Below, in pieces: positions 4,958 through 9,726 of a DNA stretch of 10,816 bases (position 1 is its first letter; every line of letters begins with the position of its first letter). The position numbers and the translations under genes are program-made. The stretch lies in UHGV virus genome UHGV-0110205, one strand, 5' to 3'. Below the pieces are notes generated by a model that saw only the letters and a program-made list of their open reading frames with translations, did not search any database and was not told the DNA's origin. This stretch comes from a virus.

Positions 4958-5341
4958 TTAGAAGGGAATTGAATCGTCGTATTCAGGATGATTTTGATGA
5001 TTGCTACTTTGCTGCTGTTGGCTGTTTCCTGAAGTTGCAAATCCAATCCTTGCATTCAGTAATTCAAGAGTGATTGATTGACCATTTTGCCCCTGATAAA
5101 CATCAACCCTGATGTTTTCTCCGGTAATTTCTACAATGCCACCTTCAACAAGAACACTACGGTAGTAATCCGCTTGCGCTCCCGGCTTGGCAAATACAAC
5201 GGCGCTGTAGTTTGTCCATTCTTTCTTTTTTGTCTGGCGATCGTAATACTGAACGCCAGCACGGATGTTGAATCCGATATTTTCCCCGGCCTGAAACTCT
5301 CTTGCGGGCTTGTTTAGTCTTACAGTAATCGAATGTGCCAT
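4958..5341 (-). CDS. ssb: Phage single-stranded DNA-binding protein
   Basis: 127 aa from ATG 5341; canonical SSB acidic C-terminal tail ...PEYDDSIPF preceded by Gln/Ser-rich linker. Start overlaps erf stop as TAATG. Confidence 0.75.
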   Translation of the reverse strand: MAHSITVRLNKPAREFQAGENIGFNIRAGVQYYDRQTKKKEWTNYSAVVFAKPGAQADYYRSVLVEGGIVEITGENIRVDVYQGQNGQSITLELLNARIGFATSGNSQQQQSSNHQNHPEYDDSIPF

Positions 5342-5946
5342 TAAGCAGCCGCTCCTTCTAATTCGTCTCGTCTGATGTTGTAAACGTCCTGCGCTTTGTG
5401 CTGCTCCGGTGTGCCTTCGAGCATCTTCCACGCTTTGGCGAACGCCTGTTTAAGCTCTTCCACGGTGTTTTTCTGCAATGCTGCGTCAGTGAATGCTTTT
5501 AGAACCTGTTCAGGTGTAGGTGATGGTTTTGATTGCTTTACTGCTGCGTTCTGCTGATGTTTATGCTCGTCTGTATCTGCATCTTTCGCATCATCAATGC
5601 CGAACAAACCATTAAGGCAATACTTGCGCGCATAAGAGCTTGTAGCTCCAGTAACTTGTGCAGAATCCATTCCTTTCTTGCTTTCTTCCTCTCGTGCAAG
5701 AGCGGTTGCCGTATGACTGTTTTCGCCATCGGTAATAGTTGCCGTGGCTTTCACGTAATACCGATCACCAATCAACACAACTTCATCGCTGATTGATAAA
5801 AACAGGCCATTCAGTAACGGCTTAACGCCTTCAAGAATGTCTTCGCAGCTTCTGTATTTATATTTGCCGAATGAGTTGTACTGATTCTTTGGCGCGTTCA
5901 GATTCTCCTGAATAGCTGCCAGTCTTGCGTAAAATTCTTTGCTCAT
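5341..5946 (-). CDS. erf: Erf-family single-strand annealing protein (P22 Erf-like)
   Basis: 201 aa from ATG 5946 (MSKEFYARLAAIQENLNAPKNQYNSFGKYKYRSCEDILEGVKPLL...), matching my recollection of P22 Erf. The ORF-track start is an upstream TTG. Confidence 0.9.
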   Translation of the reverse strand: MSKEFYARLAAIQENLNAPKNQYNSFGKYKYRSCEDILEGVKPLLNGLFLSISDEVVLIGDRYYVKATATITDGENSHTATALAREEESKKGMDSAQVTGATSSYARKYCLNGLFGIDDAKDADTDEHKHQQNAAVKQSKPSPTPEQVLKAFTDAALQKNTVEELKQAFAKAWKMLEGTPEQHKAQDVYNIRRDELEGAAA

Positions 5947-5956
5947 ATGATTGTTC

Positions 5957-6127
5957 TCAGAATGGACACGGCCCAAGGAAATAACGCTGATTTAATACTT
6001 CGACTCGTGACAAATTAAGGCATACCCGCATTCCTTCGCGGTCGCCATTATGGCGATACCAGAGAGCTTTCTGCGTGTACATGCGTCTCTGTAACTTGCT
6101 CTCCTTCACTGTGGTTGCAAGTGACAT
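5957..6127 (-). CDS. Small protein, 56 aa, at the position of P22 arf (accessory recombination function)
   Basis: AAGGAGA 5 nt upstream of ATG 6127; MSLATTVKESKLQRRMYTQKALWYRHNGDREGMRVCLNLSRVEVLNQRYFLGPCPF; ends 11 nt before erf. Not in ORF track (<60 aa). Function inferred from position only. Confidence 0.4.
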   Translation of the reverse strand: MSLATTVKESKLQRRMYTQKALWYRHNGDREGMRVCLNLSRVEVLNQRYFLGPCPF

Positions 6128-6495: not shown

Positions 6496-7464
6496 TTAGT
6501 AGGTTATTTTTGTTGCGAATACTTCGCCTTTTACGATGGCTGTTATGATATTTTTAGCAACATCTTCTGATGCGCCAACCTTGATAAGGTCAGCAAGTAT
6601 TTTGTTATTTACTTCTTTCCGGTGAGCTTTATCCTTTGCTCTACGCTCTTCTTCTTCCTTGATTCTTTTTTCTTCTGCTATTCTGGCTTGCTCTTTTGCT
6701 TCAGCATCGCGACGGATTCGTTCAGCCTCCTCCTGTGCTTTTCTGCGTTCTGCTTCAATTGCTGCCTGCTTTTCTCTTTCAGCTCGTTCTGCTGCCTCTT
6801 TTGCTTCGCGCTGTGCTCGCTGCTCGGCTTCAATGCGTTCACGCTCTGCACGTTCCGCTGCGGCCTTAGCTTCTGCTTCTCGCCTTGCTGCTGCTTCAAT
6901 TTCGTCTTTTGCCTTTGCTTCGGCTTCTGCTCTGGCTTTCTCTTCAGCTTCTCTTTTTAAGCGTTCTTCATGCTCTCGCTTTTCCTGCTCCGCTTTGAGT
7001 CTTGCCTCTTCTCTTTGGCGGTCAAATTCGCGATCCATCAAAATAGCTATTTCATGGTCAGACTCAATTTGCTTTGCGAGAGCTTCAGCTGCTGCCTTAG
7101 CTTCTTCTTCGGCTTTAATCCGCGCCTGTTCTTCCTCATAATCAGTAAGAGGCTGGCGTGCCTTGGCTTTCAGCTCATCAAGGCGATCACGCACTGTCTT
7201 GCGGTTGGCATCAATTAGCTTTGGAATTTCCTTCAGTTCAGCCACAAGGTCTTTGCCAAGACCATCGAGATATGTTTTCGTCTGCGCAACTTTATACGCC
7301 AGAGAAGCGATCTCCTTTCTGCCCTTTGCCGTTGTGATATCAGGCACAAAGGACATAACTTCACGTTCAACCTTTTGAAGGATTTCTTCAATCTGGTCGG
7401 CAGACTGAAATACAGTCATTGCATTTGATTTTTCAATAACAACTAAATCTGTTACTTCACTCAT
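6496..7464 (-). CDS. 322-aa protein with long E/R/A/K-rich predicted alpha-helical (coiled-coil or single-helix) central domain; function unknown
   Basis: GGAGGA 3-4 nt upstream of ATG 7464. Globular N-terminus (~110 aa), ~170-aa low-complexity charged segment (EEARLKAEQEKREHEERLKREAEEKARAEAEAKAK...), short C-terminal domain. Coding strand fixed by operon context. Confidence 0.85.
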   Translation of the reverse strand: MSEVTDLVVIEKSNAMTVFQSADQIEEILQKVEREVMSFVPDITTAKGRKEIASLAYKVAQTKTYLDGLGKDLVAELKEIPKLIDANRKTVRDRLDELKAKARQPLTDYEEEQARIKAEEEAKAAAEALAKQIESDHEIAILMDREFDRQREEARLKAEQEKREHEERLKREAEEKARAEAEAKAKDEIEAAARREAEAKAAAERAERERIEAEQRAQREAKEAAERAEREKQAAIEAERRKAQEEAERIRRDAEAKEQARIAEEKRIKEEEERRAKDKAHRKEVNNKILADLIKVGASEDVAKNIITAIVKGEVFATKITY

Positions 7465-7475
7465 ATATCCTCCGT

Positions 7476-7503
7476 CAAAAAAATCGCCCTCACATTAGAG
7501 GGC
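7476..7503 (-). terminator. Rho-independent terminator (minus strand), tL1-like, directly upstream of the 322-aa gene
   Basis: 6-bp stem gccctc/gagggc (7486-7491, 7498-7503) with 6-nt loop; on the minus strand followed by gauuuuuuug (revcomp of 7476-7485). Confidence 0.55.
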
Positions 7504-7565
7504 AAAGAAGATTTCCAATAATCAGAACAAGTCGGCTCCTGTTTAGTTACGAGCGACATTGCTCC

Positions 7566-7593
7566 GTGTATTCACTCGTTGGAATGAATACAC
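7566..7593. repeat. Perfect 9-bp inverted repeat (gtgtattca ... tgaatacac) with 10-nt spacer in intergenic region
   Basis: 7566-7574 and 7585-7593 are exact reverse complements. No U-tract on the minus strand; candidate protein-binding site or RNA processing hairpin. Confidence 0.3.
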
Positions 7594-7639
7594 AGTGCAG
7601 TGTTTATTCTGTTGTTTATGCCAAAAATAAAGGCCACCA

Positions 7640-7891
7640 TCAGGCAGCCTTGTTGTAAATGTTGCAGGTATCAAGTAAGTAATTAGATGGAGCGCCATAA
7701 ATTATGAACTCATCGTTTGTCGGGTCCATCTCCATCTCTTGGCCTATTGCCATTCTTGCGTCAGTGTCATCAGCGGCGAAGCATAAAACAGCCCACGCCC
7801 ACATTGTTTTAAAAAGAACTGCAATTGGCTGTGGTTTTACTGAATTTGCGTTAGCGCGAAAATCACAAATCGCACTTTCATGAAATTCCAT
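7640..7891 (-). CDS. Hypothetical protein, 83 aa, immediately downstream of N (position of ral in lambda)
   Basis: GAGGTG 4 nt upstream of ATG 7891; begins 9 nt after N stop. C-terminus ...YNKAA faintly recalls lambda Ral (...NNKAA), but the rest does not obviously match. Confidence 0.55.
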   Translation of the reverse strand: MEFHESAICDFRANANSVKPQPIAVLFKTMWAWAVLCFAADDTDARMAIGQEMEMDPTNDEFIIYGAPSNYLLDTCNIYNKAA

Positions 7892-7899
7892 ATCTCACC

Positions 7900-8232
7900 T
7901 CAATCGTAATAAGCTGGAATTGATTTTCCGCGTTGCTTCTGGCGGCCTGAACAAGTCACACCAATTTCACTGCGTGGCTTGCTGTACCATGTGCGCTGAT
8001 TCTTGCGCTCAATACGTTGCAGGTTGCTTTCAATCTGTTCGTGGTATTTAGCCAGCACCGTAAGGTCTATCGGATTCAGTGCGCTTTCTACTCGTGATTT
8101 CGGTTTGCGATTCAGCGAGAGAATAGGGCGGTTAACTGGTTTTGCGCTTACCCCAACCAACAGGGGATTTGCTGCTTTCCATTGAGCCTGTTTCTCTGAG
8201 CGACGTTCGCGGCGGCGTGCTTGTGCATCCAT
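7900..8232 (-). CDS. N: Antitermination protein N (lambda N family)
   Basis: 110-aa ORF MDAQARRRERRSEKQAQWKAANPLLVGVSAKPVNRPILSLNRKPKSRVESALNPIDLTVLA... is near-identical to recalled lambda N, including the Arg-rich boxB-binding motif. GGAGA 5 nt upstream of ATG 8232. Confidence 0.95.
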   Translation of the reverse strand: MDAQARRRERRSEKQAQWKAANPLLVGVSAKPVNRPILSLNRKPKSRVESALNPIDLTVLAKYHEQIESNLQRIERKNQRTWYSKPRSEIGVTCSGRQKQRGKSIPAYYD

Positions 8233-8475: not shown

Positions 8476-8506
8476 GCCCTTCTTCAGGGCTTAATTTTTA
8501 AGAGCC
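8476..8506 (-). promoter_or_regulatory. nutL (boxA + boxB) N-utilisation site
   Basis: Minus strand reads GGCTCTTAAAAATTAAGCCCTGAAGAAGGGC. boxB GCCCTGAAGAAGGGC is identical to lambda nutL boxB; boxA GGCTCTTA is one mismatch from CGCTCTTA. Confidence 0.7.
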
Positions 8507-8545: not shown

Positions 8546-8574
8546 ATAGTACGATTTGTACTTTATCGAGTCAA
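8546..8574 (-). promoter_or_regulatory. PL early-left promoter (-35 TTGACT, 17-bp spacer, -10 TACTAT)
   Basis: Reverse complement of 8569-8574 is TTGACT and of 8546-8551 is TACTAT. Faces nutL and N. Spacer contains the palindrome AGTACgatttGTACT. Confidence 0.5.
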
Positions 8575-8620
8575 TACAAAATGTTCTAAATATAACTACT
8601 TTTTTATAACGCTTTGTATT
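8548..8620. promoter_or_regulatory. Candidate OL operator sites (15-bp AGTAC-N5-GTACT type)
   Basis: Perfect palindrome AGTACgatttGTACT at 8548-8562. Degenerate copies AATACaaaatGTTCT (8573-8587) and ATAACgctttGTATT (8606-8620), spaced 25 and 33 bp. Same motif class recurs at OR. Confidence 0.35.
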
Positions 8621-8699: not shown

Positions 8700-9359
8700 T
8701 TAACTAAATGTCTCTTCAGGCCACTGGCTGGCGATAACTTTCCCTACTACGGAACAGCTATCATTGCATGGAATCATTGGATATTGCGGGTTTAGTGGTT
8801 GTAGAAACACCTGACCGCTATCCCTGATTAGTTTCTTGAAGGTAAACTCATCACCTCCAAGTCTGGCTATGCAGAAATCACCTGGCTCAACAGCCTGCTC
8901 AGGGTCAACCAGAATTAACATTCCGTCAGGAAAGCTTGGCTTGTAGCCTGTTGGTGCGGTCATGGAATTACCTTCAACCTCAAGCCAGAATGCAGAATCA
9001 CTGGCTTTTTTGGTTGTGCTTACCCATTTCTCCGCATCGCCTTTGGTAAAGGTTCTAAGCTCAGGCGAGAACATCCCGGCCTGAACATGAGAAAAAACAG
9101 GGTACTCATATTGTTTTTTAACGGGGGCAGATGAGTATTCGCCAACAGGTGAAAATGTACCGTCGTGGTTGAATGAGACGTTATCAATACCAAGGTATTT
9201 AAACACCACACCAATCTCGTCAAGAGATGGATGACGAGATCCGCGCAACCAGTGACCAATTCCACCCTGCGTCATACCAAGCTCTTCAGCTAACTTCTCT
9301 TGAGTTATGCCGAGCTCTTTCATTCTGGATCTAGCCAGTTCATACCATTTCATTTTCAT
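8700..9359 (-). CDS. cI: Prophage repressor, CI-like (N-terminal HTH plus C-terminal LexA-type S24 autopeptidase domain); not lambda immunity
   Basis: From ATG 9359 ([37 protein letters not shown]...): XRE-type HTH; C-terminal domain with Ala-Gly (HVQAGMF), Ser (EGNSMTAP) and Lys (FTFKKL). Start could be 9353 or 9401. Divergent from cro. Confidence 0.9.
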
Positions 9360-9368
9360 ACCCTTATT

Positions 9369-9442
9369 ATTACGCTCTGTACTAAAACCATCCATGCACA
9401 AGATGTATTTTTTGTTTGCATTCTAAAAGTACATATCGTATT
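9369..9442. promoter_or_regulatory. Candidate OR operator sites (same 15-bp motif class as OL)
   Basis: TTACgctctGTACT (9370-9383), TGCACaagatGTATT (9394-9408), AGTACatatcGTATT (9428-9442); spacings 25 and 34 bp. The last overlaps the PR spacer and -10. Confidence 0.35.
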
Positions 9443-9694: not shown

Positions 9695-9726
9695 CGCTCT
9701 TACACATCCCAGCCCTGAAAAAGGGC
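9695..9726 (+). promoter_or_regulatory. nutR (boxA CGCTCTTA + boxB GCCCTGAAAAAGGGC)
   Basis: Both elements match lambda nutR as recalled; located just after the cro stop. Confidence 0.75.

Follow-up and report, generated by a model that had tools for sequence, protein, structure and literature searches.

The minus-strand hairpin at 7566–7593 of the 10,816-nucleotide viral DNA analysed here (UHGV-0110205; this whole stretch is the window) flanks the 5′ side of a locus for the small RNA PreS (LPR1) and, with a probability that we put at roughly 55%, acts as a boundary or processing element for that RNA; it may in addition shield the upstream mRNA at its 3′ end. On the basis of sequence identity, the region is a prophage copy of the phage lambda ea10–ral spacer, the home of PreS, and is part of the early-left (pL) operon, a minus-strand transcription unit under N antitermination. 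The locus itself is already known; what had not been described is the hairpin beside it.

The PreS locus and its flanking hairpin

Window positions 7478–7656 align with phage lambda 33925–34103 at 97% identity, and this lambda segment is the intergenic region between ea10 and ral. The minus-strand gene order in the window is cI, N, an 83-aa ORF, the PreS block, a 322-aa ORF and Erf, and the same order, with the addition of cIII and kil, is found in mEp234, HK633 and VT2-Sakai. The 83-aa ORF (7640–7891, minus strand; phrog_2471, VT2-Sakai H0090/ECs_1180 type) precedes the PreS block, at the place where lambda has ral, and the 322-aa ORF (6496–7464, minus strand; Sf6 gp33-like, with no assigned function) lies downstream of it in the position of lambda ea10. 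The initial annotation had likened this neighbourhood to the part of lambda that holds tL1 and RNase III processing sites; this analogy was misplaced, as the homologous lambda segment is the ea10–ral spacer with tL2a, and the classic lambda RNase III sites (the N leader and sib) presumably lie elsewhere. The smallest block common to all phages consists of the hairpin and PreS (window 7478–7598). The PreS block occurs in approximately 40% of complete E. coli genomes, Shiga-toxin phages included, and P22-like Salmonella phages carry a diverged form of it.

PreS has been described as an Hfq-dependent small RNA encoded in the lambda ea10–ral region, with tL2a as its 3′ end, and is defined by the primers P810, P1103 and P1104 (Table S5) as GAGCAATGTCGCTCG...GAGGGCGATTTTTT (bioRxiv 10.1101/2024.10.31.621285). 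These primer sequences correspond to window 7564–7477 and, together with alignment to lambda, place an 88-nt homologue at 7477–7564 on the minus strand; its +1 agrees with the numbering of the alaS pairing in the preprint, which states the 5′ end without a mapping method (bioRxiv 10.1101/2024.10.31.621285). The homologue is identical to lambda PreS at 85 of 88 nt (the differences are two terminator-loop bases and the last base), and positions 1–67, which cover the seed pairing with dnaN and alaS as well as probes P843 and P922, are unchanged. It begins with a mini-hairpin (GAGC/GCUC, 7564–7551), carries its target-pairing seed region at approximately 7531–7504 and folds with z = −5.3. Its 3′ end is an intrinsic terminator (7477–7505, minus strand) that is the direct counterpart of tL2a in the lambda tL2 cluster, as indicated by the terminator scan, by a rho-independent terminator in the mEp234 record and by tL2a in the preprint: an 8-pair stem (7505–7484) is followed by seven U (7483–7477), such that the G+C-rich hairpin and poly-U tail of the usual Hfq-binding module are present.

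The locus therefore resembles that of lambda in its strand (pL), in its operon slot (behind the gene at the ral position and ahead of that at ea10), in its tL2a-type terminator, and in a seed and an upstream 28-nt hairpin that are both identical, and differs in that the 83-aa ORF replaces ral and the 322-aa Sf6 gp33-like ORF replaces ea10. A small RNA had been one of the options initially raised for the repeat. This proves correct for the neighbourhood, but the repeat itself falls outside PreS as its authors define it; the homologue sits just beyond, between the repeat and the terminator. All data on the expression, sizes, Hfq binding and targets of PreS come from lambda, in which the RNA is made in the lytic cycle, is absent in lysogens, is bound by Hfq, raises dnaN translation, appears on northern blots as bands of approximately 88 and 68 nt only and, as reported, increases host DnaN and aids lambda replication; lpr1 mutants release approximately 2–4-fold less phage spontaneously (bioRxiv 10.1101/2024.10.31.621285). 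The full lpr1 deletion of that study leaves the hairpin in place (primer P969), and the preprint makes no mention of a hairpin before the PreS +1 (bioRxiv 10.1101/2024.10.31.621285). Literature on tL2a, the ‘boundary sequence’ and lambda ribosome profiling yielded nothing further on it.

Both hairpins noticed in the initial annotation are real. The first rests on a perfect 9-bp inverted repeat, the arms of which (7566–7574, GTGTATTCA; 7585–7593, TGAATACAC) lie 10 nt apart; a repeat search returned arms at 7556–7577 and 7582–7603 (82% complementary) as the longest inverted repeat of the window. In the minus-strand RNA, the 10-nt loop is itself partly paired (U.G, U-A and C-G), which gives a 12-bp stem (GUGUAUUCAUUC / GAGUGAAUACAC) with a CAAC tetraloop, and G7565 and G7564 can extend the stem to as much as 14 bp over 7564–7595. 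The hairpin ends one nucleotide (G7565) before the PreS +1; in lambda coordinates the stem-loop spans 34013–34040 and the +1 is 34011. Folding of both strands, a check proposed at the outset, gave −18.8 kcal/mol for the minus strand (z = −6.3, 0 of 200 shuffles as good) versus −13.1 kcal/mol for the plus strand. Directly 5′ of the hairpin, a GCACU (GCACY motif; 7594–7598, minus strand) is present in all four alleles described below (columns 11–15 of alignment A2); its GCAC could pair with the GAGC at PreS nucleotides 1–4, although this possible pairing is invariant and hence uninformative on covariation.

Neither strand has a U-run behind the stem (the next bases are GGAGCAAUGUCG on the minus strand, AGUGCAGUGUUUAUU on the plus strand), which bears out the earlier remark that the repeat has no terminator tail. 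The hairpin is also missing from the terminator scan, and we rejected 7566–7593 as an intrinsic terminator. A perfect 9-bp repeat alone is not above chance, given that approximately 1.7 are expected (10816 × 41 / 4^9, spacing ≤40 nt; our own arithmetic), and the window holds other inverted repeats of 9–10 bp. What sets the hairpin above chance is its extended fold together with the conservation of the hairpin region in 344 phage records and in 2,248 of 5,426 complete E. coli genomes, to which the covariation adds.

Several other identities were considered for the region. The Rfam 15 covariance models, run over the whole window, gave no match at an E-value of ≤1 within 7400–7700; the sole match at that threshold is a weak rsmX at 1881–2016. 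An N-utilisation (nut) site, with boxA followed by a boxB of the GCCCUGAAAAAGGGC type, was rejected for the hairpin region, as the true nut sites lie away from the PreS block (nutL at 8506–8476, minus strand; nutR at 9695–9726, plus strand); the interior of PreS contains a one-mismatch boxA-like 9-mer, without boxB and at chance level. EcOnc20 (an Hfq-bound RNA of prophage Sp5 in E. coli O157 Sakai; Tree et al. 2014) was rejected as the same locus, its coordinates being upstream of N. Several phage records call ORFs over the PreS block (for example, phrog_31828 and BTP1_033), and the gene table of Salmonella D23580, among the rows listed, has only a CDS across the BTP1 copy; this intergenic block should carry a small-RNA locus label.

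Hairpin alleles and covariation

Four sequence-distinct hairpins occupy the same position, each ending one nucleotide before GAGCAAU: allele A (lambda, Stx phages, the window and UPF_BP1), allele B (P22, ST64T, mEp043 and mEp213), allele C (ST104, SE1, BTP1 and epsilon34) and allele D (ES18, S107 and SEN22). A BLAST search for distant matches, with the P22 version as query, brought in alleles C and D, and two metagenome pattern scans built to exclude alleles A and B found no further hairpin alleles. The alleles differ in length by 1–2 nt, and their continuous stems measure 12–14 bp in A, 11 bp in B and C, and 9 bp followed by a mismatch and 2 bp in D.

Pairs were counted on alignment A2, which includes the conserved 5′ flank and is in register; RNAalifold on a longer alignment had placed the allele B hairpin out of register and was set aside in favour of A2. 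In A2, 8 of 11 pairs have changes in both partners, pairing is kept in 99.1% of cells, and the pairing, the number of cells changed in both partners and the covariation score (0.512 versus 0.143) were matched by 0 of 500 shuffles; with the partners slid by 1–3 columns, 23–54% of cells pair. The basis of this covariation is four alleles, equivalent to about three independent replacement events. The lower stem varies and the top three pairs (A-U, U.G and U-A below the loop) are invariant, such that some of the signal may reflect sequence recognition. Single-base stem variants within alleles are uninformative, because the three of six that keep pairing and the three that break it approximate the expectation for neutral transitions.

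The pL-sense strand is the more stable in all 204 of 204 copies, by approximately 4.8 kcal/mol on average, and every allele contains G.U pairs, which is why only the sense strand folds well. Taken together, the covariation and the strand bias, as read from these alignments, point to a selected RNA structure and not to an operator. The proposed check of conservation in relatives thus came out in favour of the repeat, which is kept whatever the flanking genes.

The hairpin also behaves as a separate unit at the PreS boundary, as judged from mosaic junctions and from the combination of its alleles with small-RNA bodies of the lambda type or of the P22 type. Among 138 copies, 32 have such a junction at 7599, immediately ahead of GCACU and the hairpin, 4 have it at 7565 (between the hairpin and the PreS +1) and 1 has it at 7563. 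More than six unrelated sequences are found upstream of the hairpin among phages. In L052 (an allele B locus) and ES18 the upstream ORF stops 5–6 nt before the hairpin; in the window and lambda a further 40–60 nt separate the two, and the window has its second hairpin there.

A predicted terminator behind the 83-aa ORF

This second hairpin (7621–7651 with its tail, minus strand) is predicted to be an intrinsic terminator behind the 83-aa ORF, on the basis of the terminator scan, its fold and a rho-independent terminator in the mEp234 record. The AAGGC/GCCTT repeat noticed initially forms the outer five pairs of a 9-pair stem (7651–7630; AAGGCUGCC-UGAU-GGUGGCCUU, with two G.U pairs and five G-C) that holds the stop codon of the 83-aa ORF (TGA, 7642–7640), and the minus-strand stem leads into the U-run UAUUUUUGG. 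Its folding energy is −13.9 kcal/mol (z = −2.7; as good a value arose in 3 of 200 shuffles). Its variants change G.U to G-C or A-U, and other phages have a different left arm; lambda has a degenerate counterpart at the stop codon of ral (−4.3 kcal/mol, z = +1.1). The predicted element shares its intrinsic-terminator form and its operon with the lambda early-left terminators, but it is not tL1, which we take to follow N directly.

Proposed role of the hairpin

The initial annotation had also suggested a processing site, and this is the reading of the repeat that survives best, given that structure rather than sequence is conserved and that the hairpin ends one nucleotide before the PreS +1; cleavage itself is something that we infer. 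The 5′ end of PreS apparently arises by processing and not from a promoter of its own. A sigma-70-like promoter scan of 7465–7640 on both strands found none, candidate promoter hexamers read by eye round the hairpin included none common to alleles A and B, and the RNA is confined to the lytic cycle, being absent from lysogens.

We suggest that read-through transcription from pL would yield a long RNA in which the hairpin folds as an independent unit and so may keep the variable upstream sequence from pairing with PreS. A host endonuclease would then cut at the 3′ base of the hairpin, releasing the 88-nt PreS with its tL2a-type 3′ end for binding by Hfq, and the upstream mRNA would keep a 3′-terminal stem-loop that resists 3′ exonucleases. 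Such stabilization of the upstream mRNA fits the upstream ORFs of L052 and ES18, with their stop codons so close to the hairpin. In the window, the second hairpin (7630–7651) and its U-run may stop pL transcripts that are unmodified by N after the 83-aa ORF, and with a terminator of this kind in place PreS would therefore be a delayed-early product.

Three sets of known systems offer partial parallels. Like the enterobacterial small RNAs of the CpxQ/SroC type, PreS is embedded in a longer transcript, has an intrinsic terminator that doubles as the Hfq-binding module and has a 5′ end that is apparently processed, without a promoter of its own. RNase E liberates the CpxQ/SroC-type RNAs at single-stranded, A/U-rich sites, whereas the PreS 5′ end abuts a stable hairpin at a junction that is not A/U-rich, and its parent transcript runs past the terminator when N is active. 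Intercistronic stabilizers (the malE–malF REP elements and the pap operon) are likewise stable stem-loops between cistrons, and after downstream cleavage the PreS hairpin would similarly end the upstream mRNA fragment and could block 3′ exonucleases; however, theirs have no defined small RNA one nucleotide on, and the partner with which the PreS hairpin moves is the small RNA rather than the upstream gene. The RNase III sites of the lambda pL transcript (the N leader and sib) are cis-acting RNA hairpins of the same operon, yet they are imperfect duplexes of at least approximately 20 bp, upstream of N or in the att region, whereas the stem before PreS has 11–14 bp and is a candidate site only.

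No nuclease fits cleanly, because the junctions (CACG|GAGCAAU in allele A and UAUGU|GAGCAAU in allele B) do not resemble the usual RNase E site (RN|WUU) and an 11–14 bp stem is short for RNase III. We regard it as unlikely that RNase III nevertheless makes the PreS 5′ end by cutting at the base of the stem, in the way that it cuts other parts of lambda pL transcripts. The lambda pL RNA is a classic substrate of this enzyme, the little sequence preference of which would fit the atypical junction. On the 3′ arm, 12–13 nt separate the loop from the PreS 5′ end, and this end would fall within a putative lower stem (GCAC/GAGC round an A.A mismatch) that would bring the helix to approximately 16–17 stacked positions. 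Classical E. coli substrates have approximately 20 bp (about two helical turns) and are cut with a 2-nt stagger, but the continuous stem is shorter than this in all four alleles, and the invariant pairs of the lower stem neither support nor oppose the idea.

A role confined to the upstream gene, in which the hairpin would stabilize the 3′ end of the mRNA of that gene and would adjoin PreS through tight packing, is rather unlikely. Stable 3′ stem-loops do protect mRNA in E. coli, and the closely spaced stop codons in L052 and ES18 accord with such a role, but the hairpin travels with PreS behind its many unrelated upstream sequences, the ORF in the window and lambda ends well short of it (in the window with another hairpin intervening), and its 3′ end is fixed one nucleotide from the PreS +1 in all four alleles.

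More doubtful still is a 5′-terminal stem-loop of a longer PreS precursor or isoform (approximately 118–125 nt) that protects the RNA or modulates its activity. Such stem-loops stabilize E. coli RNAs, and the minimal shared block does comprise the hairpin together with PreS. Against this, a promoter-like site just upstream is lacking, and pairing between hairpin and seed is no better than in shuffled sequences: both hairpin alleles carry a 6-mer complementary to the PreS seed, yet the duplex energies are at shuffle level (fractions as good, 0.18 and 0.13), and we dropped the idea of an anti-seed. Nor did northern blots detect RNAs other than those of approximately 88 and 68 nt (bioRxiv 10.1101/2024.10.31.621285).

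A DNA operator bound by a dimeric protein, proposed initially for a lysogen-expressed gene, is highly improbable: the repeat is intergenic, perfectly palindromic over 9 bp and spaced by 10 bp, but no promoter-like site adjoins it, the half-site GTGTATTCA recurs in the window only as one chance one-mismatch match, the arms are unrelated in sequence among four alleles that keep their pairing, the opposite strand would have A.C mismatches in place of the G.U pairs, so that the pL-sense strand is always the more stable, and PreS is reported to be absent in lysogens (bioRxiv 10.1101/2024.10.31.621285). Conservation for protein coding is just as improbable. The 51-aa ORF at 7543–7698 matches its PHROG family (phrog_31828) over the full length, and a 32-codon frame from the ATG at 7558 is open, ends in an ATGA that overlaps the start codon of the 322-aa ORF and, by our own reading, renders three of five base changes in the small-RNA body synonymous; however, the 51-aa ORF starts inside the 83-aa gene (a gene missing from most phages that bear the block), has no Pfam match and crosses a terminator and the hairpin, whose alleles differ by 1–2 nt, and the 32-codon ORF has a GGAG only 2 nt before its ATG and crosses the tL2a stem, where terminator-loop indels shift the frame in some copies.

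Returning to the hairpin as a boundary or processing element of PreS, we tentatively propose, as a possibility that we consider less probable than this general role, that it forms a modular release cassette, in which the invariant top of the stem and the GCACY motif would be recognized by a host nuclease or RNA-binding protein, the lower stem need merely be paired, and the exact 5′ end of PreS would be set in the antiterminated pL transcript whatever the upstream gene. If true, this would explain the swapping of the cassette as a unit among lambda-like and P22-like phages, and the cassette would be the first cis-acting signal to be defined for the production of such a phage small RNA. How PreS is released from the long early-left transcript is not explained in the preprint (bioRxiv 10.1101/2024.10.31.621285), and the conserved, covarying hairpin offers a direct handle on this step.

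A known small RNA locus in the early-left spacer

The window covers the immunity and early-left region of a lambdoid prophage, in which the pL operon lies on the minus strand together with a CI-type repressor gene (8700–9401, from gene calls and family matches), a lambda-type N gene (7900–8232; Pfam N36), an 83-aa ORF (7640–7891; phrog_2471), a 322-aa gp33-like ORF (6496–7464), an Erf gene (5341–5976) and a lambda-type nutL (boxA 8506–8498, boxB 8490–8476); a lambda-type nutR (9695–9726) is found on the plus strand. Given that its left arm starts at the upstream edge of a pL-like promoter match (8574–8546), an 18-nt inverted repeat at 8573–8620 (arms 83% complementary, 12 nt apart) is probably part of the oL operator region. 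Elsewhere, a weak Rfam rsmX match on the minus strand (1881–2016; E-value 0.35, 24 bits where the gathering score is 56), with a terminator-like hairpin at its end, is most likely due to chance.

Both hairpins described in the initial annotation (the inverted repeat at 7566–7593 and a second hairpin at 7630–7651) are present at those positions, within the 175-bp spacer separating the 83-aa ORF from the 322-aa ORF. Window 7478–7656 is 97% identical to phage lambda 33925–34103, the spacer of ea10 (33536–33904) and ral (34087–34287); the analogy initially drawn with lambda tL1 therefore gives way to the ea10–ral spacer with tL2a. That spacer encodes LPR1, renamed PreS, an Hfq-bound RNA of ~88 nt that is processed to ~68 nt, ends at tL2a, is produced in the lytic cycle but absent from lysogens, increases dnaN translation and supports phage replication (bioRxiv 10.1101/2024.10.31.621285, 2024 preprint). 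Cloning and in vitro transcription primers in the same work delimit PreS (GAGCAATGTCGCTCGTAACT...GAGGGCGATTTTTT), and the numbering of its alaS pairing diagram confirms the +1. The locus is thus already known, as PreS with tL2a. In the window, PreS runs from 7564 to 7477 (minus strand), differs from lambda at two terminator-loop bases and the last base only, and ends at the tL2a counterpart, so that the terminator named in the title of the initial annotation is the PreS 3′ end. No Rfam 15 family matches the PreS/hairpin region at E-value 1 or better.

The block is found in 344 phage records and 2,248 of 5,426 complete E. coli genomes with variable flanks: its upstream neighbour is ral or the 83-aa ORF, its downstream neighbour ea10 or the gp33-like ORF. 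The PreS pattern also matched low-coverage contigs of ~48.4–48.5 kb in Shewanella and Pseudomonas assemblies, and others of various sizes in, for example, Neobacillus, Oceanobacillus and Bradyrhizobium assemblies; such contigs (L009, L014, L024 and other pattern hits) look like contamination with lambda control or spike-in DNA.

The 9-pair stem of the second hairpin (7651–7630, minus strand) holds the TGA stop of the 83-aa ORF, is followed by UAUUUUUGG and matches a terminator pattern (−13.9 kcal/mol, z = −2.7); it is best read as a predicted intrinsic terminator behind the 83-aa ORF, at which N-independent transcripts would stop. Its variants turn G.U pairs into G-C or A-U, a different left arm pairs with the identical right arm and U-run in other phages, and it carries a terminator annotation in the mEp234 record. 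As the lambda counterpart is degenerate (−4.3 kcal/mol, z = +1.1), this hairpin does not belong to the unit in all phages.

Exchangeable hairpins at the PreS 5′ boundary

The perfect 9-bp arms of the inverted repeat (7566–7574 and 7585–7593) are by themselves within chance (an estimated ~1.7 expected per window of this size, with others present). In minus-strand RNA, three extra pairs form within the apparent loop, giving a stem of 12 bp capped by a CAAC tetraloop, or of 14 bp with G7565 and G7564 paired; it is the longest inverted repeat anywhere in the window. Folding of both strands, as initially recommended, yielded a hairpin favoured on the minus strand (−18.8 kcal/mol, z = −6.3, versus −13.1 on the plus strand). 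Its 3′ end lies one nucleotide (G7565) before PreS +1.

Across 138 copies pulled from IMG/VR and genome contigs by seed pattern, the 3′ limit of the conserved block is always the tL2a U-run, and on the 5′ side window homology stops at a few discrete positions: 7657 (42 copies, ral type), 7636 (20), 7618 (4), 7609 (6), 7599 (32, directly 5′ of the GCACU motif that precedes the hairpin), 7565 (4, the hairpin/PreS +1 boundary) and 7563 (1, like 7565 with a base change at PreS nucleotide 2). Copies broken at 7565 or 7563 carry another hairpin instead, UAUAGCAGAUU-UACG-AGUCUGCUAUG (allele B), which likewise ends one nucleotide before GAGCAAU. Two IMG/VR contigs are recombinants in which a lambda-type PreS body is fused part-way to another 3′ end: L195 changes over to a P22-type terminator after GGAAAUC, and L198 has two copies, one without a terminator.

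Allele A occurs in lambda, Stx phages and the window, and allele B in P22, ST64T, mEp043 and mEp213; a distant-homology search queried with the P22 version added allele C (UAAUGACCA...UGGUCAUUG; ST104, SE1, BTP1 and epsilon34) and allele D (UAAUGCGGA...UCCGCAUUG; ES18, S107 and SEN22). In P22-like Salmonella phages there is a diverged PreS relative of 101–104 nt (P22 copy L209:1541–1642; also ST104, ES18, SE1, BTP1, S107, ST64T, epsilon34 and SEN22, L210–L217) that retains the 5′ end GAGCAAUAUCGCUCGUAAC and core GUUCUGGUUA, with 11–13 nt inserted in the seed region, another terminator (GCCGC...GGCGGC) and an internal helix in which the two types differ by a G-C to A-U change; none of the literature examined describes it as a small RNA. 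The hairpin alleles occur in free combination with both bodies, alleles A and B being joined to the lambda type and A (UPF_BP1), B, C and D to the P22 type.

In an alignment of 41 distinct sequences (A2), anchored on conserved flanks with the four alleles in register, both sides changed in 8 of 11 pairs and 99.1% of cells were paired. None of 500 shuffles matched the observed pairing, both-sides-changed cells or covariation score (0.512 versus 0.143), a signal limited by the four alleles representing about three independent replacement events; offsetting partners by 1–3 columns lowered pairing to 23–54% of cells. Single-base variants inside alleles kept pairing in three cases and broke it in three. 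No variation occurs in the three pairs nearest the loop (A-U, U.G, U-A) or in a GCACY motif directly preceding the stem on its 5′ side. G.U pairs in all alleles become A.C mismatches on the opposite strand, and the pL-sense strand is more stable in all 204 copies; of random 36-nt segments drawn from these loci, only ~2% reach the folding stability of allele B and 0.15% that of allele A. Conservation in relatives, which the initial annotation had singled out, holds for the structure across all four alleles, whatever the flanking genes. These observations point to a selected RNA structure of the pL-sense transcript, and the hairpin is tied to the PreS 5′ boundary and to no single upstream gene.

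Processing and alternative readings

The suggestion of a small RNA or processing site was partly right, in that the known PreS adjoins the repeat; cleavage at the repeat is our proposal. A scan of both strands of the spacer (7465–7640) found no evident promoter and PreS is absent in lysogens, so its 5′ end most likely comes from cutting of the long pL transcript. We suggest that the hairpin may shield PreS from variable upstream RNA, may fix the cleavage point at its own 3′ base and, after the cut, could protect the upstream mRNA as the stem-loop left at its 3′ end. In ES18 and at one allele B locus (L052), 5–6 nt separate the stop of the upstream ORF from the hairpin. The hairpin/PreS junction departs from the usual RNase E site, and RNase III usually acts on longer stems; GCAC and GAGC, which do not vary across copies, could pair as a lower stem and so lengthen the duplex. 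Just upstream of the hairpin, RNA 7602–7616 (minus strand) reads AAC AAC AGA AUA AAC, with four of five triplets fitting A-R-N, like motifs for which binding to the distal face of Hfq has been reported; it occurs only in phages with homology extending past 7609.

ECs1180 ranks 22nd among coding sequences in Hfq crosslinking, and no small RNA is listed there at the Sp5 PreS position (Tree et al. 2014). Given that ECs_1180 (E. coli O157 Sakai prophage Sp5), the counterpart of window 7640–7891, has the PreS block directly downstream, these reads may originate from PreS.

The operator idea failed on every test run: there is no promoter, the half-site has no second copy in the window, arm sequences differ among alleles and stability is strand-biased. 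Coding is unlikely. The 51-aa ORF phrog_31828, called straight across the hairpin and small RNA in Stx phages (window 7543–7698, minus strand), starts inside a gene missing from most block carriers and spans a terminator and hairpin alleles of unequal length; this call and BTP1_033 (STMMW_03491; L213:106–252), drawn across the BTP1 copy, are probably spurious over a non-coding locus. For a 32-codon frame across PreS, the ribosome-binding site is poor, and indels in the terminator loop shift the frame in some copies. Self-inhibition via hairpin–seed pairing was unsupported. Inside PreS, 7547–7555 (minus strand; CGCTCGTAA) is one base off the lambda boxA 9-mer query CGCTCTTAA; it is not followed by a boxB hairpin, and the window's three matches of this type lie within chance expectation.

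The PreS preprint does not mention the hairpin, and its full lpr1 deletion retains it (primer P969; bioRxiv 10.1101/2024.10.31.621285); the covarying structure is described neither there nor in a review. What is added here is a covarying hairpin abutting the PreS 5′ end, with at least four exchangeable alleles in lambda-like and P22-like phages. It is no new kind of system; it offers a moderate, testable lead on PreS biogenesis.
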